From positions 1 through 25,956 of the IMG/VR virus record IMGVR_UViG_2711768059_000012: a stretch of DNA of 25,956 bases; one strand, 5' to 3'. The position numbers and the translations under genes were made by a program. This DNA is from a virus. Taxonomy: Duplodnaviria > Heunggongvirae > Uroviricota > Caudoviricetes. Position 1 is the first letter of the stretch. Every line of letters begins with the position of its first letter. This document shows, in pieces, positions 1 through 14,665 of the stretch. Below the pieces are notes generated by a model. That model worked only from the letters and a program-made list of their open reading frames with translations. It was not told the origin of the DNA and made no database searches.

Positions 1-1032
1 TCAAACAGTTGCTGTTGATGTTGGTAGTGTAGCCAGCGGATTAAACCGTAATGCAGTTTCCAGGTGATCCGGTGCCAGATGTGCGTAACGCATGGTCATT
101 TTTATGTCGTGATGTCCGAGGATTTTTTGCAAAGCAAGGATATTTCCACCCGACATCATGAAATGCGCCGCAAACGTATGGCGCAGAACGTGTGTCAGTT
201 GACCGCGAGGGAGTACGATGGACGTTTTTTCCATCACGGATAAAAATTGAAAATAGCAGTCTGTGAAGAAATTGAACCCATCAAGCGCCATGATCTCTTC
301 GTAAAGGTCTTTACTGATAGGGATGCTTCTGTTTTTCTTCCCCTTCGTTCTTACAAAGGTAATTCGGTATTTGGTCACCTGTGAGCGGGTAAGATTTACG
401 GCTTCACGCCAACGTGCGCCTGTGCTTAAGCATATCTTAACTACCAGTGCCAGAATTGGGTCCTGACGTTTGCAATCAGCCAGCAATTCAACAATCTGCT
501 CATGGGTAAGCCATGCCATCTCTTTTTCTGCGATGGTGAATTTTCGCATGTTCTCCAGTGGGTTCGGATACGACCATTCGCCCAGGCGGGATAGTTCGCT
601 AAAAACACTACTTAGATAGCTTTGCTCCAGGTTAATGGTGACCGGGCTTGCTCCTTTCTTCCATTTCTCGCTGAAGTAGATCTCACCTGTCAGGCGTTTA
701 TCTCGATAGTGGGCAAACATTTTAGATGTGAGATCAGTTGCAAGGGGATTGCCCAGAGCGTCAACCATCAACAGCAGTTTGTCATAGACATGCTGGCCAG
801 CTGTCAGAGATTTACCATGTAGTTTGAACCATAGTTCAACCACGTCTTTCAGTGTTCGACGATCCACTGATTCGCCCAGCCAGGGCTTTGCTTCGGTTTC
901 TTCCATCGTGTGACGCTCAAAAGCCAGAGCTTCGCCTTTGGTGGCGAATTGTTTACGCACACGACGTCCGCTACGTCCGGCGGGGTAACATTCGCAAAGC
1001 CATTTTCCTGTGGTGAGTTTTCGTACTGCCAT
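1..1032 (-). CDS. int: Tyrosine integrase (P2/186-type site-specific recombinase)
   Basis: 343-aa ORF with tyrosine-recombinase catalytic signature in order (R in STGARWREA, HVLRHTFA box, RYAHL with catalytic Tyr). Stop codon is at the window edge (pos 1-3). Position next to the repressor is typical of P2-like prophages. Confidence 0.9.
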   Translation of the reverse strand: MAVRKLTTGKWLCECYPAGRSGRRVRKQFATKGEALAFERHTMEETEAKPWLGESVDRRTLKDVVELWFKLHGKSLTAGQHVYDKLLLMVDALGNPLATDLTSKMFAHYRDKRLTGEIYFSEKWKKGASPVTINLEQSYLSSVFSELSRLGEWSYPNPLENMRKFTIAEKEMAWLTHEQIVELLADCKRQDPILALVVKICLSTGARWREAVNLTRSQVTKYRITFVRTKGKKNRSIPISKDLYEEIMALDGFNFFTDCYFQFLSVMEKTSIVLPRGQLTHVLRHTFAAHFMMSGGNILALQKILGHHDIKMTMRYAHLAPDHLETALRFNPLATLPTSTATV

Positions 1033-1036
1033 AAAA

Positions 1037-1056
1037 AGCCCTCATGTCAGAGGGCT
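1037..1056 (-). terminator. GC-rich hairpin plus U-tract directly upstream of the int start codon; putative terminator of the old-like gene and/or RBS-sequestering structure for int
   Basis: Minus strand reads AGCCCTC-TGACAT-GAGGGCT-TTTT-ATG(int). The 7-bp stem is followed by a T-run, and the only SD-like GAGGG for int lies in the 3' arm. Confidence 0.45.
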
Positions 1057-1104
1057 AAATTTAACTGTATGTTTGACCAGTGGTCAATGTATGTAAATAT
1101 TAAA

Positions 1105-2874
1105 TCATACGTCAGGGGTAATCCAGTCGACTAAAGCCTCAATACTTTCGAAATCTGCACAGATATCTGAAAGAGGTTGTGTATCTGCTTTTGTTTTGAA
1201 ATCAGCCCATACTGATTCATTTTTTTCTGTAAGACCCAAATGGTTTTCTATCGAACCATTTAGCCAAATCCAAATATTTGCATTTCTCAGTTTTGCGGCT
1301 AATGATGACAAAAATTCTCTGGCGCCGGGCTTTTGAGACATAATAGCAAATGCTTCAGCTGCGGTAGTGTTACTACCCCTTGTAGGCAAACCGGATCCAT
1401 CGAGAGTGCATTCTCCATTAGCATGCATACTTCTCAAGATTTCTTTTAGTCGTAAAATATCCTCGTCATTATGTTCTAAGAAGTTGTTCCTTATTGCACC
1501 GCGGAACGCAAAATCTAAATCAACAATTGCTTTTGTAGGTATATCCATTGAATTTAGAATTTGCATCGTTTTAGATATACTTTCAACGGACCCTGTTTCA
1601 ATTAGTGCTATTTGCATCTGACCTAATGTTTTATTTTTAACTTTGTTAAAAATAAATGGGAGCAGAGTAGTCTCTGTTTTACCTTCTGTTAGTATTACAT
1701 TGTTAGCAAACAAAACTTTTGAAGACTGTGTTAATGAAAATAAATGGGTTGCTTGTGCTGGTCGTTGTTCGATTACTTTATTGACTGCTTCTTTTAATGT
1801 TAATCTGCAATGAGTGCCACGCTGACTGTTTTTTCTGATTAACACAGTGTCTTTTGCTAAGTCAGAGGTAATCATTTGAGATGAATGGGTAGAGAAAATT
1901 ATTTGATATCCATGATGAGATAGTGTTTTTAGAGATTCTCTAATTTGTTCGATAGCAAATGGGTGAAGATATAACTCAGGTTCATCTATTAACAGTAGAG
2001 TAGTTGTTTTAATATCATCACCGTTGGTTATATCAGCTAAATGTCTTATTAGAGCCATCTGAATCGAACGCTGTGTGCCATGACCATAAGAAGAACAGTC
2101 ACGAGCAATGCCGGGAAATGAATCTTCATATACTTTTACAGTCCCTGATTTAAATATATCCTTGAAGTCAGGGAGTTCGAAGTGTAGTTTTAAACTTATC
2201 CCAGGGAAGAAATCAGCAACTTTACTACTTATTGAATCATCAATATCATTGAGGTCCGATATTCGTTTATTACCGGTTGCAGTCATTCTTCTATTAACGG
2301 CATTTAAATGGCTTAGTATCATTTGAGTGTGCTTCTCTTCTATTTTGCAACTCAATTCTGCCAGCAACTTACCTATTGTAGTTCCTGTTTTTGATTTTGA
2401 AGAATCATCCGCTGCATTTTCCATTGCACCTATACGTATTGGGTCTGGAAATAAAGCTTTTATCGCATTCTCAATACCCGTTGGTGATGTTCTGAATTCG
2501 TTATTTTCTGGGTTTTTAATTAATAATCTGACGTCTTTTGCACTTTGAGCACCAACAGGCTGTTGACGCTTAAATATCAATGCCTCATCAATAATGTAGG
2601 GTGAAATTCTAGTTCTGTTTTCTTCTGTTAAAGCTGACAAAATATCTTCAGTAATACCCTTAACTGTGCCTATAACTTCTATAGGGTTATCTGGATTAGT
2701 ATAATCATCAGAGGACAAAAGTTTTTTCTTAAAAAGCCATTCAATAGCATTTAAAATCGTTGACTTACCAGCATTGTTGTAACCGATTAAAGGCGTGAAT
2801 GAAGAAAAATTGATATCAATATCTTTGCAAGATCTAAAGTTTTTTATAGAAATCTTTGAAAGATGATGATTCAT
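1105..2874 (-). CDS. OLD-family ATP-dependent endonuclease (N-terminal ABC/AAA ATPase + C-terminal Toprim), P2 Old-like
   Basis: 589-aa ORF. N-terminus IKNFRSCKD...GYNNAGKST (Walker A), LLLIDEPELYLHP (Walker B/D-loop region), C-terminal VILTEGKTE and AIVDLDF resembling Toprim Glu and DxD. Strong RBS (GGAGGAG, 6 nt before ATG). Visibly AT-rich compared with flanking phage genes. Confidence 0.7.
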   Translation of the reverse strand: MNHHLSKISIKNFRSCKDIDINFSSFTPLIGYNNAGKSTILNAIEWLFKKKLLSSDDYTNPDNPIEVIGTVKGITEDILSALTEENRTRISPYIIDEALIFKRQQPVGAQSAKDVRLLIKNPENNEFRTSPTGIENAIKALFPDPIRIGAMENAADDSSKSKTGTTIGKLLAELSCKIEEKHTQMILSHLNAVNRRMTATGNKRISDLNDIDDSISSKVADFFPGISLKLHFELPDFKDIFKSGTVKVYEDSFPGIARDCSSYGHGTQRSIQMALIRHLADITNGDDIKTTTLLLIDEPELYLHPFAIEQIRESLKTLSHHGYQIIFSTHSSQMITSDLAKDTVLIRKNSQRGTHCRLTLKEAVNKVIEQRPAQATHLFSLTQSSKVLFANNVILTEGKTETTLLPFIFNKVKNKTLGQMQIALIETGSVESISKTMQILNSMDIPTKAIVDLDFAFRGAIRNNFLEHNDEDILRLKEILRSMHANGECTLDGSGLPTRGSNTTAAEAFAIMSQKPGAREFLSSLAAKLRNANIWIWLNGSIENHLGLTEKNESVWADFKTKADTQPLSDICADFESIEALVDWITPDV

Positions 2875-2917
2875 TTTAGACTCCTCCAGTAAGTATTTAA
2901 AAGTAATGTCTGCAATG

Positions 2918-3856
2918 TTATTGTATTGTTAAGATAATGCTGGCTATAATTTGAATATCTTCAATGGAACACTCAAAATCCTTACTCCCACCAGAAACAA
3001 GAATTTTGTTCTTAGGTAAACGAGTTAACTCTTTTAAAGATAACTCATTGTCAATTCCTACTAACCATTTTCCATCTCTAATTAGGTGAAATTCTTTATC
3101 ACATATGACATGTTTTTCTCCATTGCTTACAAACATCAAGCTGCTAGTTTCTTGCTTCGGAAGTAGACACCGATCCATGGATAAAAAACCTGACTCGACA
3201 AGCACGCCATTGACCAAATTGAACTTATTTAAAATTACAGTGTTTTCTTCTTGTGAACTATTTGGTGTTTCGATTCCTGTAACTAGCCAGGCGAGATCCG
3301 CTTTGGTTTCTAATGCGCATTTAATCACCCAATCCGCAGGGAAAGAATCTCGCATGTATCGTGTGGCTAATGTGCTTTTTGAAATACCAAGGTGGTCGGC
3401 TAAGGCTTGGCGGGTTTTAAACCCGTAAGCATTAACAATCCTCTCTATCGCGGCTTTTCCTCCGTTAGTAAGCTCAATATGATTCTCAATGCGGCGCTTA
3501 AAGGATGATTGATGAGCGTTGCTGTTAAACCCCTCATGTGGGACTGTTTCATCATGTTGTTCCACATAAGGGGGGAAACTTTCTTCTGCATTGTTAGAAC
3601 CAAAGGCCAGCCATTCTAGGGATGCGCCAGTTTCCATTGAACATATAACAACCCAATCAGCAGGGAAGGTATCGCGTGCATATCTATTAGCCATTGTGCT
3701 TTGTGAAATACCAAGATGCTTACAGAAGGCTTGGCGTGATTTGAAACCATAGGCCTTGAGTATCCTCTCAATGACTTTTTGCCCTCCACGATTCTGCATG
3801 ACCATAGCTTTCAGACTATCTTCAATATGGCGAAATGTGATTTTTTGAGTTGACAT
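2918..3856 (-). CDS. cI: CI-type immunity repressor (186 CI family) with tandemly duplicated N-terminal HTH domain
   Basis: 312-aa ORF divergent from the apl/cII operon. Two ~58-aa copies of IERI(L/V)(K/N)AYGFK(S/T)RQA...HLGIS(Q/K)ST(M/L)A(N/T)RY(A/M)RD(T/S)FPADWV..., at residues ~29-86 and ~137-194, then a C-terminal domain. The duplication is also visible at the DNA level. Confidence 0.8.
   Translation of the reverse strand: MSTQKITFRHIEDSLKAMVMQNRGGQKVIERILKAYGFKSRQAFCKHLGISQSTMANRYARDTFPADWVVICSMETGASLEWLAFGSNNAEESFPPYVEQHDETVPHEGFNSNAHQSSFKRRIENHIELTNGGKAAIERIVNAYGFKTRQALADHLGISKSTLATRYMRDSFPADWVIKCALETKADLAWLVTGIETPNSSQEENTVILNKFNLVNGVLVESGFLSMDRCLLPKQETSSLMFVSNGEKHVICDKEFHLIRDGKWLVGIDNELSLKELTRLPKNKILVSGGSKDFECSIEDIQIIASIILTIQ
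3275..3772 (-). repeat. Intragenic tandem duplication (two ~174-bp copies, 3599-3772 and 3275-3448) encoding the two HTH modules of the repressor
   Basis: Protein-level repeat seen directly. Shared DNA strings such as gaaataccaag and aaggcttggcg occur in both copies. Confidence 0.7.
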
Positions 3857-6599: not shown

Positions 6600-7426
6600 A
6601 AGAAATGCACCACGGAATTCATCATTTCCATGGGACGCCTGTCTGGGGAAGTGCTGGCGACGTTCATCGTATTGCGGTGAGCGGAGCTGGCGCTTTCGTC
6701 TCCTATGTACGACCAGATCAGATTGCGGCGTCCATTCAGCACGCTCAGGTCGTCGGCATTGATAACGGCGCATTTTCTGCATGGGTGCGTGGGCTAAAAA
6801 TTAACTGGAGTGATTTTTATAAATGGCTCCTGAACTATTACCACCATCCTAAGGTCGCTTTTTTTGTCATTCCTGATGTTGTGGACGGAGGTGAACGTGA
6901 CAATGATGCCCTGATAAACGAAGTTCCGAAAATGTTCTACGGGAAGGCAACTCCCGTCTGGCATCTGCACGAGTCAATCGATCGGCTTATCGAGCTATGT
7001 CGTGAATGGCCTCGTGTCTGCTTTGGATCGTCTGGTGAATATGCGGCTATCAGAACTGCGCACTGGCATCGTCGTATGCAGGACGCTTTTGAAGCAATTT
7101 ATTGCCGACACAATTTCAAAACAGCTGTTCATGGTTTGCGCATGCTTGACGGTCGTGTGTTGGGAAATTACCCACTGGCGACTGCCGACAGTACAAATCT
7201 TGCCTGCAATGTCCCCAAATTTAATAGCAAATATCCTGAGCTGACGCGGGCTATTCAGGAGGCTGAGTATTCGCGCAATCTGACGGAAAAGGAGCTGAAA
7301 GCTGTCATTCTGAAAAACCGTTGCGCAATTTTAAAAGGTGCAATTGAAGCTGTTCGCCCACCTTCAGTTTCTGATTGGCTGTCGAATGGTTTGCAGCCTT
7401 CACAGCTCGAACTGGAGATTGCGTAA
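6596..7426 (+). CDS. Hypothetical protein, possibly a minimal TGT/DpdA-like (7-deazaguanine) transglycosylase (speculative)
   Basis: 276-aa ORF (GTG 6596 overlapping the dam stop, or ATG 6605). Motifs in the same order as in tRNA-guanine transglycosylases as I recall them: GTPVWGSAG (cf. TPAFMPVGT), [11 protein letters not shown] (cf. ILTDSGGFQV), FFVIPD (cf. MAFDE), FGSSGE (cf. GGLAVGE). No Zn-binding Cys cluster. The assignment rests on remembered motifs only. Confidence 0.55.
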
Positions 7427-9798
7427 TGAACTACAGCTATTCCTGGAATGCTGAGAAAAAAGCAATCAATCCTTACGTAGAGACAGAAGAGCAATCTTCA
7501 GTTTCTGCGCTTTCAAACCTGATCGCTCTGTACGCTGCCGATAACGAGCAGGAACAGCTGCGCCGCGAGGCACTGAGTGATCAGGTCTGGGAGCGTTATT
7601 TCTTTAATGAATCCCGTGATCCTGTCCAGCGCGAAATGGAGCAGGATAAGCTCATTAGTCGGGCAAAGCTGGCGCATGAGCAGCAGCGTTTTAATCCAGA
7701 TATGGTCATTCTGGCGGACGTCAATGCCCAGCCTTCCCATATCAGCAAGCCGCTGATGCAACGTATTGAATACTTCAGCAGCCTGGGCAGGCCAAAGGCT
7801 TATTCCCGCTATTTGCGTGAGACGATTAAGCCATGTCTGGAACGGCTGGAGCATGTACGCGACTGTCAGCTATCCACTTCTTTTCGCTTTATGGCAAGCC
7901 ATGAAGGGCTGGACGGCCTGCTGATCCTGCCTGAAATGAGTCAGGATCAGGTGAAACGCCTGTCCACCCTGGTAGCTGCGCATATGAGCATGTGCCTTGA
8001 TGCAGCTTGTGGCGATTTGTATGTCACCGATGACGTTAAGCCAGAAGAAATCCGCAAGACATGGGAAAAGGTGGCAGCGGAAACCCTGCGTCTGGATGTC
8101 ATCCCGCCTGCGTTTGAGCAACTCCGCCGGAAAAGAAACCGCCGTAAACCCGTGCCCTATGAACTCATTCCGGGTTCGCTGGCGCGTATGTTGTGCGCTG
8201 ACTGGTGGTACCGGAAATTATGGAAGATGCGTTGCGAATGGCGGGAAGAGCAGTTGCGTGCTGTCTGCCTGGTCAGCAAAAAAGCATCTCCCTATGTCAG
8301 CTATGAAGCCGTGATGCATAAACGTGAGCAGCGCCGTAAGTCGCTGGAGTTTTTTCGTTCTCATGAACTGGTGAACGAAGACGGCGACACGCTGGATATG
8401 GAAGACGTGGTAAACGCCAGCAGCAGCAACCCTGCGCATCGCCGCAATGAGATGATGGCCTGTGTTAAAGGCCTGGAGCTTATCGCGGAAATGCGCGGTG
8501 ACTGCGCCGTTTTCTACACCATCACCTGTCCGTCACGTTTCCATTCCACGCTAAATAATGGCAGGCCCAACCCAACTTGGACAAATGCGACGGTAAGACA
8601 AAGCAGTGATTATCTGGTCGGCATGTTTGCTGCATTTCGTAAGGCGATGCACAAAGCCGGATTGCGGTGGTATGGCGTGCGGGTGGCTGAGCCGCATCAT
8701 GACGGTACAGTTCACTGGCACCTGTTGTGTTTTATGCGCAAAAAAGACCGCCGCGCCATCACTGCATTACTGCGTAAGTTTGCCATCCGTGAAGACCGCG
8801 AGGAACTGGGCAATAACACTGGGCCGCGCTTTAAGTCTGAGTTGATTAACCCGCGCAAAGGTACGCCAACAAGCTACATCGCGAAATACATCAGTAAGAA
8901 CATTGACGGGCGTGGTCTGGCTGGCGAGATCAGCAAGGAAACGGGGAAATCCCTGCGTGATAATGCTGAATACGTTAATGCCTGGGCGTCTCTGCATCGT
9001 GTTCAGCAATTCCGCTTCTTTGGCATTCCGGGGCGTCAGGCTTACCGTGAACTGCGATTGCTGGCTGGTCAGGCGGCAAGGCAACAGGGGGACAAAAAAG
9101 CAGGTGCGCCGGTACTGGATAACCCGCGCCTTGATGCCATCCTGGCTGCTGCTGATGCTGGTTGTTTTGCCACCTACATCATGAAGCAGGGCGGCGTACT
9201 GGTTCCCCGCAAATATCACCTCATCAGAACCGCTTATGAAATCAACGAAGAGCCGACCGCCTATGGCGATCACGGCATTCGTATTTATGGCATCTGGTCA
9301 CCTATTGCAGAGGGCAAGATCTGCACTCATGCCGTGAAGTGGAAAATGGTTCGTAAGGCCGTTGATGTTCAGGAGGCGGCAGCCGACCAGGGCGCTTGCG
9401 CCCCTTGGACTCGTGGCAATAACTGTCCCCTTGCTGAAAATTTGAAACAACAAGGGAAAGACAAATCAGCTGATGGGGATACCAGAACGGATATCACCCG
9501 CATGGATGACAAGGAGTTGCACGATTACCTGCACAGTATGAGCAAAAAAGAGCGCCGGGAACTGGCTGCAAGGTTACGCCTGGTGAAACCGAAACGGCGT
9601 AAAGACTACAAACAGCGAATTACAGACCATCAGCGACAGCAGCTCGTCTATGAACTGAAGTCCAGAGGATTTGATGGCAGCGAGAAAGAGGTCGATTTAC
9701 TCCTTCGCGGCGGCAGTATTCCGTCAGGAGCAGGCCTGCGTATCTTCTATCGGAACCAGCGTTTGCAGGAAGATGATAAGTGGCGAAACCTGTATTAA
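7426..9798 (+). CDS. A: Rolling-circle replication initiator endonuclease (P2 gpA family)
   Basis: 790-aa product from ATG 7426 (overlaps the upstream stop as TAATG). HUH motif TVHWHLLCF and paired active-site tyrosines in [11 protein letters not shown]. Size matches P2 A. Confidence 0.9.
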
Positions 9799-10384: not shown

Positions 10385-10520
10385 TAGGTTTCGTTTGTAA
10401 TGAGTCATGTTTTTTGAGTCCGATAGTAGACAGCTAGAGGGATAAATGATTAATAGATAGATTAAACATAGTGATGGGCGTAAAATCGCGCGCATTTTAT
10501 TGGCAACGGATCTGAACTCA

Positions 10521-11414
10521 ATGGCGGATAAGACTCAATCAGTAAGTATTGTGTATCAAGGCAAAGCTCTCGACGATCATAAGATGGATATTCTTTCGTT
10601 TGCGAAAAGTTTGCAGGGGCTAGGTGAGGCTATCTACTCTGCAAATGAGATTGTAAACGGAGGGCGAGACATTGAAGTTAACGTTGACGCTGAATTGATA
10701 GCCGGTTCCTTTGGGTTTGATATTGAGGTTGTACAACATCTAGCTAATGCTAAAGATGTTGTACAAATTTTAGGTTTGTCAGCCATTCCTTTAGCCGTTG
10801 GCGGTGCTACAGTTTTAGAGGTTCTCAAGAAGCTTAACGGGCGTAAGATCGACATAGTCGAGAAAGCTAACGGTAGTGACAAAGTTAAGCTGAAAGTCGA
10901 TGGTGAAGAGATTGTTTGCTCTGAAGATGTCGAAAAAATCGTTAATGCCCCAGAGATTCGTAAGGCTGTTGACGCGTTTGTCAGACAGCCTCTGTTACAA
11001 GATGGTATCGACAATTTTGTGGTAAAAAAATCGCGCACCTCTAAGAAAGAAATCCTCAAAATTCATAAAGATGAGGCAGAAGAGTTTAAGTCGCCAAAAG
11101 TTCTCTTTGAAACCAAAGAAGAAGTTGACGAATTTGAAACAACCGTGACATTCGTTTCGGCGCATACTGACAAAAAAAGTGGCTGGCGTGTTGAGTTTGG
11201 CGGTGAAAAGCGCAATGTCAGAATGGAAGATAATGAGTTCATCAAGCTTGTTACTGGACCAGACGCCCCCAAAATTTTTGGCGAATTGTTTGCTGTGAAG
11301 ATGAAGAAAATTGTGAAAGATTCCGGTGGCCAGGTAGACGAAAAGTTATCGATCATCAAAGTGGGTCGACACTTTGCCGCCAAAGATAGAAAAATAAAAC
11401 CTGATGCGGATTAA
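10521..11414 (+). CDS. Hypothetical soluble protein, first gene of a three-gene accessory module
   Basis: 298-aa (ATG 10521; TTG 10500 also possible), Lys/Glu-rich, no recognised catalytic motif. Sits in a visibly AT-rich stretch. Stop is 2 nt before the next start. Confidence 0.6.
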   Translation: MADKTQSVSIVYQGKALDDHKMDILSFAKSLQGLGEAIYSANEIVNGGRDIEVNVDAELIAGSFGFDIEVVQHLANAKDVVQILGLSAIPLAVGGATVLEVLKKLNGRKIDIVEKANGSDKVKLKVDGEEIVCSEDVEKIVNAPEIRKAVDAFVRQPLLQDGIDNFVVKKSRTSKKEILKIHKDEAEEFKSPKVLFETKEEVDEFETTVTFVSAHTDKKSGWRVEFGGEKRNVRMEDNEFIKLVTGPDAPKIFGELFAVKMKKIVKDSGGQVDEKLSIIKVGRHFAAKDRKIKPDAD

Positions 11415-11416
11415 AA

Positions 11417-11680
11417 ATGTCTATAGATATTAGTGTGTTAGGATGGTTGGGGCTGCTTGTTGCAGCTCCAGCTATATTTATAGGTGCTAGAGTGGCTATA
11501 CGTAGCCTGCTCGATCGAGTTATTGTCGAAACAAAAGTTTCTATCACTTATACTGATGCAAACAAAAATGTCTATAAAACAAATATTTATATAAACAATG
11601 ATGATGAGTTAATAAAGCTCATCGATGATATAGCAGAGAAAAATAAGCGTGAGAGGAAGGAGTCAGCCTCTCATGCCTGA
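11417..11680 (+). CDS. Small membrane protein (one N-terminal TM helix), second gene of the module
   Basis: 87-aa. Hydrophobic VLGWLGLLVAAPAIFIGARVAI then a charged C-terminal tail. Coupled to both neighbours. Confidence 0.55.
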   Translation: MSIDISVLGWLGLLVAAPAIFIGARVAIRSLLDRVIVETKVSITYTDANKNVYKTNIYINNDDELIKLIDDIAEKNKRERKESASHA

Positions 11681-12089
11681 ACAAAAGAAAACAAGCGGTA
11701 AAGCAGTCGGTGTTACAGGTGGCGGCGGTGTAGGCCTTTTCCTAATAAAGCTGGCTAGCTTCATTACAGATCCAACATGGAAAGACCTTTACATTGCTTC
11801 AATACCGATGGTGTCAATTCTTTTAAGCGAAGTTTTTACTTTTGCATGGACGATTTATGCTGTTGATCCGCAAGAAATCAAACTGAAAAGGCGGTTGAAG
11901 GCTCTGAAGAAGCAAGCCGAAGCAGTTTTAAATGCACCATCGTCCCCTGTTTCTCCAGAAATGCGAGAGAAAGCGCAGGCTCGTTACGACGTGATCTGTG
12001 GAATTGAAATGGGAATTTACCCCCTCTCAATTGTAAATACGCTAGATGGAAAAGTATCCCCCACAGCGCAAACGCCGGACGTTAAATAG
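11673..12089 (+). CDS. Small membrane protein (two predicted TM helices, Gly-zipper), third gene of the module
   Basis: 138-aa from ATG 11673 (GAGGAAGGAG upstream; 8-nt overlap with previous gene). GVTGGGGVGLFLIKLASFI and IASIPMVSILLSEVFTFAWTIYAV hydrophobic segments, then a basic coiled region. Confidence 0.55.
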   Translation: MPEQKKTSGKAVGVTGGGGVGLFLIKLASFITDPTWKDLYIASIPMVSILLSEVFTFAWTIYAVDPQEIKLKRRLKALKKQAEAVLNAPSSPVSPEMREKAQARYDVICGIEMGIYPLSIVNTLDGKVSPTAQTPDVK

Positions 12090-12326: not shown

Positions 12327-13568
12327 ATGCAAAGAATAGTTTTTTACTCTTGGCAATCTGATTTAAATGGAAAATGTAATAGAAATTTAATTCAAGATGC
12401 TTTGGTTAGATCTCTAAAAGCAATAAAAAAGGATGAAACAGAAACATTGGAGCCAGTCTTGGATCGTGATACTAATGGTTTAAATGGCTCACCATCAATT
12501 AGCGAAAGCATTTTTAATAAAATATCACTTTCAGATGTTTTTGTTGCCGATGTTTCTATCATAAATGGAAGGTCTGAGGATAAGAAGACACCTAATCCAA
12601 ATGTTTTGATTGAATTAGGATATGCAGTATCCCAGCTAGGCTGGGATAGAGTAATCATGGTCCAGAATACATTTTATGGTTCTCCAGAAGAACTTCCTTT
12701 TGACTTAAGAGGACGGAGGGTAATTGCATATACTATGGACCCTGATAGTGATTCAAAACCTGAGGTAAGAAGCTTACTGCAAGGGCGACTTGAAACTGCA
12801 TTAAGGGAGTCCTTGAGTGATTCAAGCCAAGGAGCTATTTCTTCAGGTTTAAATGCACCAATATGGTGGGGGGAGTGGTACAAGGACAATCGCAGAAGTA
12901 ATTTTGGCAAATTATTTATTCGTGAAACATCGTCAAATGGTTTTCTTTTTGATTTAGTAGTTATGAATGGATCACATTCTGGGAGTATTACAGGAGAGGC
13001 GGTTTTTGTAGCTAGAGATTCAGCTTACGCTAGAATAAAAATACCTGGAAGTAATGAATTTGGCGAGTTGAGTTTTAGGCGCAGCATATTTGATGGTAAA
13101 CGATATATTAGGATAAGTGAGACCGTTAGTTGTCAATACTGGCGAGGTATGGGGGCCTTTTTTGATGGTGAGTTTCGTTGTGCAGAGGATCATTTGTTTT
13201 TATTTGGTTTTGCAAATGAAATGGAACTTCAGAGATTATACAACGTTATGGGGCAATATTACTTTGAACTGAAAAAAGTGATGGAGCAAATAGGTGAGCG
13301 CGATAATCTTGATACTTTTGTCGCAAAGGCTTATCAGGGAGGAGTTAGAGGACTTTATACCATTGCGGAAGGTATGGTGATGTTTGGTAGAGAGGGCGAG
13401 ATATGGGCTATTTATCTCAATGATGGTGAAATTCGTTATTTCACAAATGTACATAAATGGAAAAAAACTATTCCAAAAACTTTTGAACAGTGGCGAGAAC
13501 GATTTCCAGAGATTGAAATAAATTATGGAGGTGATATCTCGACACTTCCTACACAAGAAGATTTATAG
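12327..13568 (+). CDS. Two-domain protein: N-terminal TIR-like/nucleoside 2-deoxyribosyltransferase-like domain plus uncharacterised C-terminal domain; candidate anti-phage effector
   Basis: 413-aa. GAGGAG RBS 7 nt upstream. N-terminus RIVFYSWQSD (cf. TIR beta-A FISYSxxD) and NPNVLIELGYA (Glu96 in an E-[LI]-G-Y-A context as in the NDT/TIR-like superfamily). Very AT-rich. Followed by a hairpin terminator. Confidence 0.65.
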   Translation: MQRIVFYSWQSDLNGKCNRNLIQDALVRSLKAIKKDETETLEPVLDRDTNGLNGSPSISESIFNKISLSDVFVADVSIINGRSEDKKTPNPNVLIELGYAVSQLGWDRVIMVQNTFYGSPEELPFDLRGRRVIAYTMDPDSDSKPEVRSLLQGRLETALRESLSDSSQGAISSGLNAPIWWGEWYKDNRRSNFGKLFIRETSSNGFLFDLVVMNGSHSGSITGEAVFVARDSAYARIKIPGSNEFGELSFRRSIFDGKRYIRISETVSCQYWRGMGAFFDGEFRCAEDHLFLFGFANEMELQRLYNVMGQYYFELKKVMEQIGERDNLDTFVAKAYQGGVRGLYTIAEGMVMFGREGEIWAIYLNDGEIRYFTNVHKWKKTIPKTFEQWRERFPEIEINYGGDISTLPTQEDL

Positions 13569-13621: not shown

Positions 13622-14665
13622 TTAAGTTATGTTGGGTTCAAATGCATAAGAATCAAAACGAATTACTTGTTCATTGGCCCAGCTATTCAGTTCCTCAAAA
13701 CGCTTCTGTAGAGGGATCAGTTCATTTCGAACAAAAACGCGGCTGGCCTTCTCCACATCCCCAAACCCCCCGACATTATTCGGCATAATCCCCATCATCT
13801 GTGGCGGAACACGATGCGCCGCCATCATGTCATCGCGGCTGACGTTCTTGATGTTCAGAAATTCATCTTTCGCCGCGACTTCTGACAACGGGATGATCTG
13901 AAGCCCGTCTTTTTTGCCGTTAGGCGAGTACATAAACAGGTTGCGGAAGTTGCCCGGGCCTTTGGCGCTTTTCATTGCGTTGCGGAGGTTGTTCACGTCC
14001 TCCTGGTTCTGCGCGGCATCGGTCATGTACATGATGAAGCCTGCATGACTGCCGTTAATGTAATACTTGCGGCGGAACAGCGTGGCGGACTCGTTGAGCA
14101 GGGCTGACGGAATGGCAGAAAGATAACCGGGCAGGCCGTAGATCTCCTGGTTGATATCCGGTTCTATCAGATGAAAAATGCTGCCTTTCGTGAACTGATA
14201 CGGCTGGGTTGTCATACCGTATTGCACAAACCAGTAGGTATCCAGGTCTAACCCGCGTCGGGTGTATTTTGCCAGAGCAGGCTCAAGGGCGATAACTTCA
14301 CCGAAGCGGTTCGTGCGTTTCTCCAGGTAGGCGTTACCAAATACCAGATAGTCCTGCACAAAACGTGAAAAAGCCTGCTGGCTGAGCAGCGGGTGGGGGA
14401 TGTAGGTACTGGTCAGAATGTTGCATTTCACCGCAATTGGTGAACTGTGATGCACGGCGGCGCGGAAGGTGCGCGCCAGTCCGTCAAAGCTTACTGGCGG
14501 CTCATACCAGCGATCTGTCTGTACGCATTCCACATAGTCCAGTAGTTCGCGGCGGTCCAGAACAGGAACGGGATCACCGAAGCTGAATGCTTCGGCTGTA
14601 GTCTGACTTTTATGCTGGATCTGGTTCGTCGACGCAGCGCGGTTCTTCTTACTCTTTCCCATCAA
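13622..14665 (-). CDS. Q: Portal protein (P2 gpQ family)
   Basis: 347-aa (P2 Q is ~344 aa). Start overlaps the stop of the upstream terminase gene. Conserved position next to P and divergent from O. Confidence 0.9.
   Translation of the reverse strand: MMGKSKKNRAASTNQIQHKSQTTAEAFSFGDPVPVLDRRELLDYVECVQTDRWYEPPVSFDGLARTFRAAVHHSSPIAVKCNILTSTYIPHPLLSQQAFSRFVQDYLVFGNAYLEKRTNRFGEVIALEPALAKYTRRGLDLDTYWFVQYGMTTQPYQFTKGSIFHLIEPDINQEIYGLPGYLSAIPSALLNESATLFRRKYYINGSHAGFIMYMTDAAQNQEDVNNLRNAMKSAKGPGNFRNLFMYSPNGKKDGLQIIPLSEVAAKDEFLNIKNVSRDDMMAAHRVPPQMMGIMPNNVGGFGDVEKASRVFVRNELIPLQKRFEELNSWANEQVIRFDSYAFEPNIT

Follow-up and report, generated by a model that had tools for sequence, protein, structure and literature searches.

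A predicted Class 1 OLD nuclease resembling P2 Old between cI and int of a 186-like prophage

Results

Organization of the old locus

The stretch of DNA analyzed here (the window, 25,956 nucleotides) comes from a 186-like prophage that is integrated adjoining rcdA in E. coli. An old-like gene is located between the genes of the integrase and the immunity repressor, and the region contains the following features:

1..1032, minus strand: int, tyrosine integrase of the P2/186 type (Pfam Int_N, Phage_integrase)
1037..1056, minus strand: hairpin with a 7-bp stem and a T-run, directly 5' of the int ATG (1032), ending 4 nt before it
1058..1087, minus strand: putative promoter-like box TTGACC-18 nt-TAAATT in the int leader, recognized by its consensus alone and retained next to different types of cargo
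1105..2874, minus strand: old-like gene, intact open reading frame with ATG start, 589 aa
2875..2917, minus strand: spacer of 43 nt between cI and old, with no terminator and no usable promoter
2881..2887, minus strand: Shine-Dalgarno sequence of old, GGAGGAG, 6 nt 5' of the ATG at 2874, read from the sequence
2918..3856, minus strand: cI immunity repressor, 312 aa (Pfam Phage_CI_repr in two stretches, a duplicated 186-type HTH, and Phage_CI_C)
2918..3305, minus strand: 3' part of cI, coding for the CI C-terminal domain, AT-rich and exchanged together with old

Position, strand, start codon and length of the open reading frame are exactly as described in the initial annotation, and the strong ribosome-binding site that it had assigned to old is present at 2887..2881. 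The gene had also been called AT-rich, and its composition bears this out, with a G+C content of 35.3% (GC3 25%) compared to 47.7% for int and 51.7% for the remaining window.

Because old follows cI at a distance of 43 nt on the same strand with no terminator between the two genes, it is most likely expressed on the repressor transcript. The spacer 2875..2917 contains no terminator-like site on the minus strand, and its sole promoter-like match (2901..2873) overlaps the Shine-Dalgarno sequence and the start codon. Using the operon layout of phage 186 for comparison, the gene order and the absence of consensus signals suggest that cI and old most likely share a transcript which starts at the lysogenic promoter(s).

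The spacer between old and int has a length of 72 nt and harbors the hairpin, which had been interpreted as a terminator belonging to old. The hairpin itself is real (minimum free energy of the region -21.3 kcal/mol, z = -4.0), but its 3' arm holds the GAGG Shine-Dalgarno sequence of int. The hairpin and about 60 nt upstream of it are kept in relatives with entirely different cargo, and it therefore belongs to the conserved int leader and not to the old cassette. This conservation alongside other cargos rules out a private terminator of old. An RNAalifold analysis of six leaders revealed no double-sided compensatory changes in the hairpin, and the impression gained by eye of a compensated stem in Klebsiella phage 4LV2017 was not supported statistically.

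Affiliation of the old product with the OLD family

To compare the product of old with P2 Old, GajA and AriA we used alignments and profile searches. The single-gene 'Old' model of PADLOC (PDLC02358) matched the protein with 776 bits (E 8.7e-234) over profile positions 2-578 of 578, and P2 Old, which is likewise matched over its full length, reached 712 bits with the same model. The next-best PADLOC models were AriA with 118 bits (partial, in two stretches) and, for GajA, 98 bits at best. The retron-Eco8 effector model NF038234 gave 62 bits compared to a cut-off of 250; the NCBIfam matches to retron-Eco8, MAD3 and PtuA were all far under their cut-offs, and AriB was not found among the best 25 profile matches. 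A pairwise alignment with P2 Old covers 585 of the 589 residues of the window protein at 37% identity (58% positives). The domain order is the same and the lengths are close (589 and 586 aa), as had been pointed out before. Together with the lack of a partner gene, these data agree with the proposed class-1 identity. The old product is a Class 1 member of the OLD family and is predicted to act, like P2 Old, as a stand-alone nuclease with ATPase and Toprim domains. A comparison with PHROGs gave phrog_4747, labelled only 'unknown function'.

The same combination of ABC ATPase and Toprim domain, and a related structure, is found in GajA (Class 2), the OLD protein of retron-Eco8 (Class 3) and AriA/AriB of PARIS (Class 4). 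A different origin of the gene could be considered, namely that it is what remains, without function, of an OLD system with several genes (Gabija, PARIS or retron-Eco8) after the loss of the other half. The partial matches to AriA, GajA and the retron-Eco8 effector would fit such an origin, but they are weak and reflect the shared architecture, with HMM scores for these systems 7-12x lower than for Old. In contrast to the window protein, GajA needs the helicase GajB, AriA a separate or fused AriB, and the OLD protein of retron-Eco8 a reverse transcriptase and msDNA. No adjacent gene for a GajB UvrD-like helicase is present in the flanks of old, the AriA matches are only partial, the Toprim domain is assigned to the OLD-like family, and no reverse transcriptase ORF lies nearby. 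Near old, the ORFs of the window code for neither a helicase nor a reverse transcriptase nor a split partner, which argues for Class 1 and against a decayed two-gene system, and a search against Rfam gave no match to a retron or another known ncRNA in the sequence searched. With cI and int as direct neighbours of old, no partner is missing or truncated, and the spacers of only 43 and 72 nt leave no space for a partner or a pseudogene. The genomic contexts of homologues in five genera also revealed no common partner gene. Furthermore, all orthologues of old are intact (584-589 aa), and the comparison with the Citrobacter orthologue (84% identical) yielded a dN/dS of 0.07; old is under purifying selection. 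Score ratios, tight flanks and homologue contexts thus rule out a decayed two-gene system, and we regard this explanation as effectively refuted.

A homologue search matched more than 2,000 proteins at E <= 1e-10, relatives over the full length. Sampled members of the clade of the window protein are 47-84% identical to it. This clade is larger than and separate from that of P2 Old, which shows 35-39% identity to each of its members.

Domains, catalytic residues and predicted structure

The protein is composed of the following regions:

residues ~1-360: ABC ATPase (Pfam AAA_15, AAA_21)
residues ~160-245: helical 'dimerization' region, inserted in the ATPase
residue ~388 to the C-terminus: Toprim domain (Pfam OLD-like_TOPRIM match 388-454, 61 bits, cut-off 23)

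The Walker A motif GYNNAGKST, which had been noted for the ABC-type ATPase, comprises residues 31-39 of the translation. K37 of this motif and the residues of the Walker B, signature, D-loop and H-loop motifs (D297/E298, G264-H-G-x-Q-R269, H304 and H330) are invariant in both alignments, A1 and A2. The C-terminal glutamate and DxD motif that had been suggested for the Toprim domain correspond to E397, E401 and D452/D454, and all four residues are invariant in an alignment of 26 sequences. E397, D452 and D454 are the ligands of metal A; E401, S541 and E543 those of metal B, with K551 as the catalytic lysine.

Mutagenesis of P2 Old identified K37, D299, H306, H332, E398, D453, D455, E402, D541, E543 and K550 as required residues (PMC7049728). 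In the window protein they correspond, in this order, to K37, D297, H304, H330, E397, D452, D454, E401, S541, E543 and K551. Ten of the eleven are identical, and all except S541 are invariant in A1 and A2; catalytic residues are present in the ATPase as well as in the Toprim domain. The exception concerns metal B, where D541 of P2 Old is replaced by serine; most members of the clade have alanine at this position. The P2 mutant D541A kept its slow-growth effect.

An AlphaFold2 model calculated with an alignment that left out P2 Old reached a pLDDT of 84 and a pTM of 0.77, with lower confidence for the dimerization insert (pLDDT 50-80, residues ~150-290). The best match of this model in the PDB according to Foldseek was the OLD protein of Thermus scotoductus (Ts OLD, 6P74, E 1.1e-23), followed by GajA and the OLD protein of retron-Eco8. 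The predicted fold consists, as in Ts OLD, of ABC ATPase, dimerization insert and Toprim domain. Ts OLD, the structural prototype of Class 1, is also the best sequence match within the PDB and contains serine at the metal B position (S478, equivalent to S541), but over the structural alignment the two proteins are only ~17% identical. It is a dimeric protein of 528 aa with DNA exo- and endonuclease activity in vitro and no known biological role (PMC7049728).

In P2 Old a tetramer is held together by a hydrophobic interface of the dimerization region and a clasp of F221/F222 with Y32/Y304; the residues of this lock are L170, I177, F185, I192, L196, L229, F231, F221, F222, Y32 and Y304 (bioRxiv 10.64898/2026.07.10.737580). 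Their counterparts in the pairwise alignment are L171, I178, I186, V193, M197, L230, F232, F222, F223, Y32 and Y302. At the level of sequence, all 11 positions are thus identical or conservatively hydrophobic, and a similar tetramer may form. The ATPase motifs, the ligands of metal A, those of metal B apart from S541, and the catalytic lysine are conserved between P2 Old and the window protein.

old as cargo of the cI-int slot

The order cI-old-int was also found in prophages of Citrobacter, Serratia and Klebsiella michiganensis. No neighbouring gene is common to the more distant homologues of old from Pseudomonas and Vibrio. Comparison of related phages and prophages demonstrated that int and a leader of ~60-80 nt are conserved at ~95% and that the position between cI and int is occupied by different genes. 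Old is present in the window and in L006, L010, L011 and L012, PD-Lambda-1 in L002 and L003 (phages KP12 and 813R9), PDC-M18A/B in L007-L009 (E. coli 1105, STEC005 and SC475), and an ORF of 349 aa without known function in L001 (4LV2017). By eye, an AT-rich inverted repeat, ATGTATG...CATACAT, follows the stop codon of each cargo; it could be a boundary element, a terminator element or a chance occurrence in AT-rich DNA.

In complete E. coli genomes old is rare (14 of 5,426) and annotated as "ATP-dependent nuclease". The same number, 14, is found among the 48 E. coli genomes that share the int leader of the window. Most phages closely related to this one lack old and have unrelated genes in its place, which marks it as dispensable cargo. 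This distribution bears on the idea that old serves DNA metabolism of phage or host or the lysogenic cycle, either as a housekeeping OLD similar to Cran1 or as an addiction module which stabilizes the prophage. An archaeal OLD ATPase acts in cell-cycle progression (PMC12796447), and old lies within the immunity operon and was inherited together with the C-terminal domain of CI. Nevertheless, we consider such a role very improbable: most close relatives do without old, even with this int leader only 14 of 48 genomes carry it, defence or candidate defence genes unrelated to old occur in the same place, and the closest characterized relative of its product is a defence protein.

The slot between cI and int has already been described as a minor defence hotspot (PMC9122126; bioRxiv 10.64898/2026.02.27.708500); in prophages related to P2 this variable position between repressor and integrase, the cI-integrase or integrase-primase hotspot, holds defence systems. 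The location of old is therefore a known variable slot and not a novelty. It differs from the main published hotspot of E. coli P2 phages, the gpA-portal slot, which is also filled in the window (a PDC-S42 candidate and a TIR-domain protein). The initial annotation had stated that old of P2 lies at the other end of the genome and that the insertion point differs; indeed, the P2 gene is located between gpA/tin and cos and has its own mapped transcript starts, whereas the gene analyzed here lies between cI and int. In both phages old is a single gene without a partner, forms AT-rich cargo (35% G+C) of a temperate phage of the P2 family and is presumed to be expressed in the lysogen.

Exchange block reaching into cI

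A comparison with 4LV2017 showed that homology is lost at ~1098 and does not return before 3306, a position within cI. The exchanged AT-rich DNA thus also covers the part of cI which codes for the C-terminal domain. The G+C content of the 3' part of cI is 35.1% compared to 43.7% for the 5' part, and the C-terminal domain is 64% identical to that of a Citrobacter prophage CI but only 28% to that of 4LV2017. The same Citrobacter prophage also has the closest old (84%). The gene had been proposed to be inserted between int and the repressor gene. This is correct for its position, but a clean insertion did not occur: the breakpoint in the lineage of the window is located inside cI and not between genes, and the locus illustrates clearly how a module can be exchanged through a breakpoint within a repressor gene.

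Discussion

On the basis of these results we consider it highly probable that old, an accessory gene which a 186-like temperate phage carries between cI and int, encodes a functional stand-alone Class 1 OLD nuclease similar to P2 Old. By analogy with P2 Old, its function is likely abortive-infection defence of the lysogen. P2 Old interferes with lambda-like phages, is lethal in cells deficient in recB or recC and cleaves tRNA in the anticodon stem (PMC12445682, PMC7049728, bioRxiv 10.64898/2026.07.10.737580).

Following the mechanism described for P2 Old (PMC12445682; bioRxiv 10.64898/2026.07.10.737580), the gene would be transcribed with cI in the lysogen and translated from its own strong ribosome-binding site, and its product would be kept inactive as an autoinhibited tetramer. 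The trigger may be DNA structures that are aberrant or linked to replication and that form during replication of an incoming phage or upon its inactivation of RecBCD. The activated protein would hydrolyze ATP and cut host tRNA in the anticodon stem with its two-metal Toprim site; translation would stop, the infection would be aborted, and the population of lysogens, and hence the prophage, would be shielded from competing phages. A phage-encoded tRNA as a possible safeguard against the OLD protein of the prophage itself was not found in the window.

As substrate, tRNA appears somewhat favored by the analogy, with DNA as the main alternative. In the latter case the protein would be a Class 1 OLD defence nuclease that nicks or degrades the replicating DNA of the invader, possibly without a link to RecBCD. 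Vc OLD from Vibrio cholerae, like the window protein a stand-alone ATPase-Toprim protein (Class 1) on a mobile element, in its case a phage defence element, mediates abortive infection and depends on its DxD and Walker A/B residues; it nicks DNA and blocks replication of the ICP1 genome independently of RecBCD (PMC12392090). Ts OLD, the best structural match, also degrades DNA in vitro (PMC7049728), and the conserved two-metal Toprim chemistry alone cannot distinguish an RNA from a DNA substrate. However, P2 Old cuts specific tRNA and not dsDNA in two independent studies (PMC12445682; bioRxiv 10.64898/2026.07.10.737580). With 37% identity over the full length the window protein is much closer to it than is Vc OLD, which belongs to a different clade and is less than 25% identical to P2 and Ts OLD according to its authors (PMC12392090), and the residues of the P2 tetramer lock are conserved in the pairwise alignment. 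Cleavage of invader DNA is thus conceivable but rather unlikely, and cleavage of tRNA is the reading we prefer. Since P2 Old is only 35-39% identical to the clade members, substrate and trigger could differ from those of P2 Old, and in the literature searched we found no experiments on any member of this clade.

Conceptually the finding is small: old is an intact, already annotated, real but ordinary relative of P2 old. It confirms that Old-type abortive-infection nucleases are cargo which the P2/186-like prophages of Enterobacterales swap with each other, and such genes can fill the repressor-integrase slot in addition to the classical gpA-cos slot. The window protein is a convenient representative of the main Old clade that is native to E. 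coli, and it can be used to ask if the amputation of the tRNA anticodon arm and the sensing of DNA structures by P2 Old generalize.

A more far-reaching and doubtful reading is that the window protein belongs to a sister clade of P2 Old with a different trigger or nucleic-acid target, and that the dosage, or even the activity, of OLD is coupled to the state of the prophage repressor. Such a coupling might follow from the wiring of old into the immunity operon and its co-inheritance with the C-terminal (oligomerization) domain of CI. If this were true, the defence would be armed only during lysogeny, and induction would disarm it or direct it against the host.

Identity and catalytic residues of the Old protein

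The prophage cargo gene old encodes an intact Class 1 OLD of the P2 Old type, which is under selection and catalytically complete. The gene and its translation signal are arranged as follows:

1105..2874, minus strand: old, an uninterrupted ORF of 589 codons with an ATG start
2887..2881, minus strand: Shine-Dalgarno sequence GGAGGAG of old, 6 nt ahead of the start codon

The Walker A motif GYNNAGKST corresponds to residues 31-39 of the translation, and the G+C content of old (35.3%, GC3 25%) is lower than that of int (47.7%) and of the remaining window (51.7%). The initial annotation, made by a model from the sequence alone, had described ORF, motif, ribosome-binding site and AT-richness accurately. 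Its proposal of an OLD-family nuclease is supported by the database comparisons. Pfam assigns an ABC-type ATPase (AAA_15/AAA_21) to the N-terminus and OLD-like_TOPRIM to residues 388-454 (61 bits, cut-off 23). Comparison with the Old, GajA and AriA profiles revealed a match to the PADLOC-DB single-gene model 'Old' over profile positions 2-578 of 578 (E = 8.7e-234, 776 bits; P2 Old reaches 712 bits with the same model), followed by AriA with 118 bits and the GajA models with at most 98 bits. By BLASTP the protein shows 37% identity and 58% positives to P2 Old (586 aa) over residues 1-585. Matches to the NCBIfam entries for the retron-Eco8 effector, MAD3 and PtuA were all far under the curated cut-offs. 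The best sequence match among solved structures is the OLD protein of Thermus scotoductus (6P74), and a Foldseek search with an AlphaFold2 prediction that used 34 homologues (pLDDT 84, pTM 0.77) also returned 6P74 first (E 1.1e-23), followed by Gabija GajA and retron-Eco8 OLD chains.

According to Schiltz et al. (PMC7049728), P2 Old depends on four ATPase residues (K37, D299, H306 and H332), on E398, D453 and D455 as metal-A residues, on E402, D541 and E543 as metal-B residues, and on K550. Using pairwise and 26-sequence alignments, the counterparts in the window protein were identified as K37, D297, H304 and H330 in the ATPase and as E397, D452 and D454 (metal A), E401, S541 and E543 (metal B) and K551 in the Toprim domain. 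The Toprim residues, which the initial annotation had left to be checked, are present with Ser at position 541. Every mapped catalytic residue except this one is invariant across the family; position 541 is Asp in P2 Old, whereas the window protein and a few further ones have Ser and most of the clade has Ala. Ser at 541 is no argument against activity, because the structurally equivalent metal-B residue of Thermus OLD is likewise Ser (S478) and P2 D541A was the sole mutant that retained a residual slow-growth effect (PMC7049728).

Integrity, clade and partner genes

The exact protein is already public from E. coli under the names 'ATP-dependent nuclease' or 'AAA family ATPase', and thousands of full-length homologues (575-612 aa) occur across Gammaproteobacteria. 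Comparison with the Citrobacter freundii orthologue (84% identity) gave dN/dS = 0.07 (dN = 0.092, dS = 1.28), and the orthologues from Serratia and Klebsiella michiganensis are likewise intact. Identity to the sampled clade members is 47-84% for the window protein versus 35-39% for P2 Old, which points to the window protein as a member of the main Old clade and to P2 Old as an outlying sister. The window old belongs to a known defence family, as an ordinary member that had been annotated before. Its only mildly novel aspects are that the literature searched contains no experiments on any protein of the main Old clade and that the gene is placed in the immunity operon, with apparent co-inheritance of the CI C-terminal domain.

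The spacers of 43 nt (cI-old) and 72 nt (old-int) leave space for no further gene, and only cI and int flank old. The order cI-old-int is also found in Citrobacter, Serratia and K. michiganensis (loci L010, L011 and L012/L013, respectively). The homologues of Pseudomonas syringae and Vibrio are located in other integrase-bearing islands without a common neighbour. Among the contexts examined there was no recurrent helicase, reverse transcriptase or separate Toprim gene beside the homologues, and an Rfam search for ncRNA gave no match. The possibility, raised in the initial annotation, that old is a remnant with a missing or truncated partner is ruled out by the short spacers and by homologue contexts without a recurring partner. 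The gene fits the Class 1 definition of OLD.

Two homologue loci contain additional genes. The K. michiganensis remnant with a 53%-identical old (L012, L013) has an RVT_1 gene at 1920-2897, about 3 kb off and adjoining truncated portal and tail genes, which may be a further defence cargo, e.g. a retron or DRT. At the P. syringae locus L014 (54% identity) a 478-aa DUF8370/DUF8371 protein is encoded 84 nt downstream on the same strand (7842-9278, in a resolvase/integrase/transposase island); this neighbour, seen nowhere else, is probably independent of old.

Proposed mode of action

[quoted passage not shown] According to a 2026 cryo-EM study, the resting enzyme is an autoinhibited tetramer that is activated upon recognition of aberrant DNA; the tetramer is locked by L170, I177, F185, I192, L196, L229 and F231 and by a clasp of F221/F222 with Y32/Y304 (preprint, bioRxiv 10.64898/2026.07.10.737580). 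In the pairwise alignment the window protein has L171, I178, I186, V193, M197, L230 and F232 at the lock positions and F222/F223, Y32 and Y302 at the clasp positions, all identical or conservatively hydrophobic.

By analogy, the window Old would rest as an autoinhibited tetramer, become activated when aberrant DNA is recognised, and then use ATP to cut tRNAs in the anticodon stem, which would halt translation. A serious alternative, which we regard as less likely, is that it acts on DNA like Vc OLD (PMC12392090) or Ts OLD. The 37% identity and the conserved catalytic and lock residues favour the P2 Old scheme, which we consider the most likely one for the window Old; for the substrate itself we lean towards tRNA.

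Prophage context and the int leader

The window spans the left two thirds of a prophage of the 186/P2 family. Its genes include int, cI, an apl/cox-like gene, cII (Phage_CP76), Dam methylase, gpA, portal, terminase and more late genes. Near-identical DNA (99.4-99.7%) is present in 14 of 5,426 complete E. coli genomes; the one copy examined, in strain OkiPb01716, lies beside rcdA (ybjK) and carries the annotation 'ATP-dependent nuclease'. The cI and int genes of phage 186 are adjacent and form a single lysogenic operon transcribed from pL and pE; in the window, old lies between them on the same strand. No terminator-like signal was found in the cI-old spacer, and the single promoter-like match there overlaps the Shine-Dalgarno sequence and start codon of old, so that co-transcription of old with cI in the lysogen is the natural inference. 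The old gene of P2 lies between tin/gpA and cos, and transcript starts of its own have been mapped; the position is indeed a different one, as initially stated.

Downstream of old the following elements precede int:

1033-1093, minus strand: int leader, promoter-like box TTGACC-18-TAAATT, then hairpin and T-run
1056..1037, minus strand: hairpin with a 7-bp G+C-rich stem, and T-run

Hairpin and T-run end 4 nt short of the int ATG, and the 3' arm includes GAGG, the would-be ribosome-binding site of int. The region folds with -21.3 kcal/mol (z = -4.0); six sequences contained no compensatory changes in the hairpin. The hairpin had been taken for old's own terminator. This assignment has to be withdrawn, because in relatives with other cargo the homology extends from int across hairpin and promoter-like box to window 1093-1110, at the old stop codon. 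The leader is conserved regardless of the upstream cargo (relatives L001-L003 and L006-L013), and the hairpin is thus a backbone feature. Even so, it may terminate the cI-old transcript. Since a transcript begun at the box would start within the hairpin, the layout looks suited to stop or occlude read-through from cI and cargo and to permit separate int expression.

Directly past the old stop codon (1094-1116, minus strand) lies an AT-rich inverted repeat, ATGTATG...CATACAT, with a variable centre. A repeat of the same form follows the stop codon of each differing cargo in Klebsiella phage 4LV2017 (L001), L002, L007 and L012. Such repeats could mark cassette boundaries, act as terminators or have arisen by chance.

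The cI-int slot and the exchanged block

In the relatives compared, identity is about 95% for int and 90-96% for the right flank, which starts at cI or apl. In the slot between them, Klebsiella phage KP12 and Escherichia phage 813R9 encode a PD-Lambda-1 homologue (558 aa, E 7e-120), E. coli strains 1105, STEC005 and SC475 have the candidate pair PDC-M18A/B, and 4LV2017 encodes an unannotated 349-aa protein. Old is present in 14 of the 48 E. coli genomes having the 61-nt int leader. Prophage hotspots of this kind are already known: one between cI and integrase was described in K139-like Vibrio phages (Rousset et al., PMC9122126).

The exchanged block is larger than the insertion of old alone assumed initially and extends into cI: the DNA becomes homologous to that of 4LV2017 again only from 3306 on, and segment 2918-3305 has an old-like G+C content of 35.1%. 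CI (2918-3856, minus strand; 312 aa) contains two tandem 186-type HTH domains (residues ~24-86 and 132-194), not one, and is a mosaic. With 4LV2017 CI, residues 1-184 share 78% identity and the C-terminal domain only 28%; the C-terminal domain shares 64% with the CI encoded by the Citrobacter prophage that also has the closest old. The breakpoint, the shared low G+C content and the Citrobacter match suggest that the 3' part of cI and old moved together, apparently by recombination inside cI.

Further cargo and the int terminus

Cargo is likewise present in the gpA-portal slot, the classical old/tin hotspot of P2 (9850-13568, plus strand, between gpA at 7375-9798 and portal at 13622-14665):

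10500-11414, plus strand: 304-aa protein, PADLOC candidate PDC-S42 (E 8e-44)
11649-12089, plus strand: 146-aa ORF without match
12327-13568, plus strand: 413-aa protein with TIR domain, CAP12/Pycsar-effector type

This brings the defence cargos of the prophage to at least two, possibly three.

At the other end of int, window nt 1-20 match no relative. The integrase stops 7 codons sooner, with the tail ...LPTSTATV versus ...LPSGDKVAAAVGITP in E. coli OkiPb01716; the integrases compared are otherwise 95-99% identical to it. The 3' end of int was probably replaced or lies at a rearrangement or att junction.
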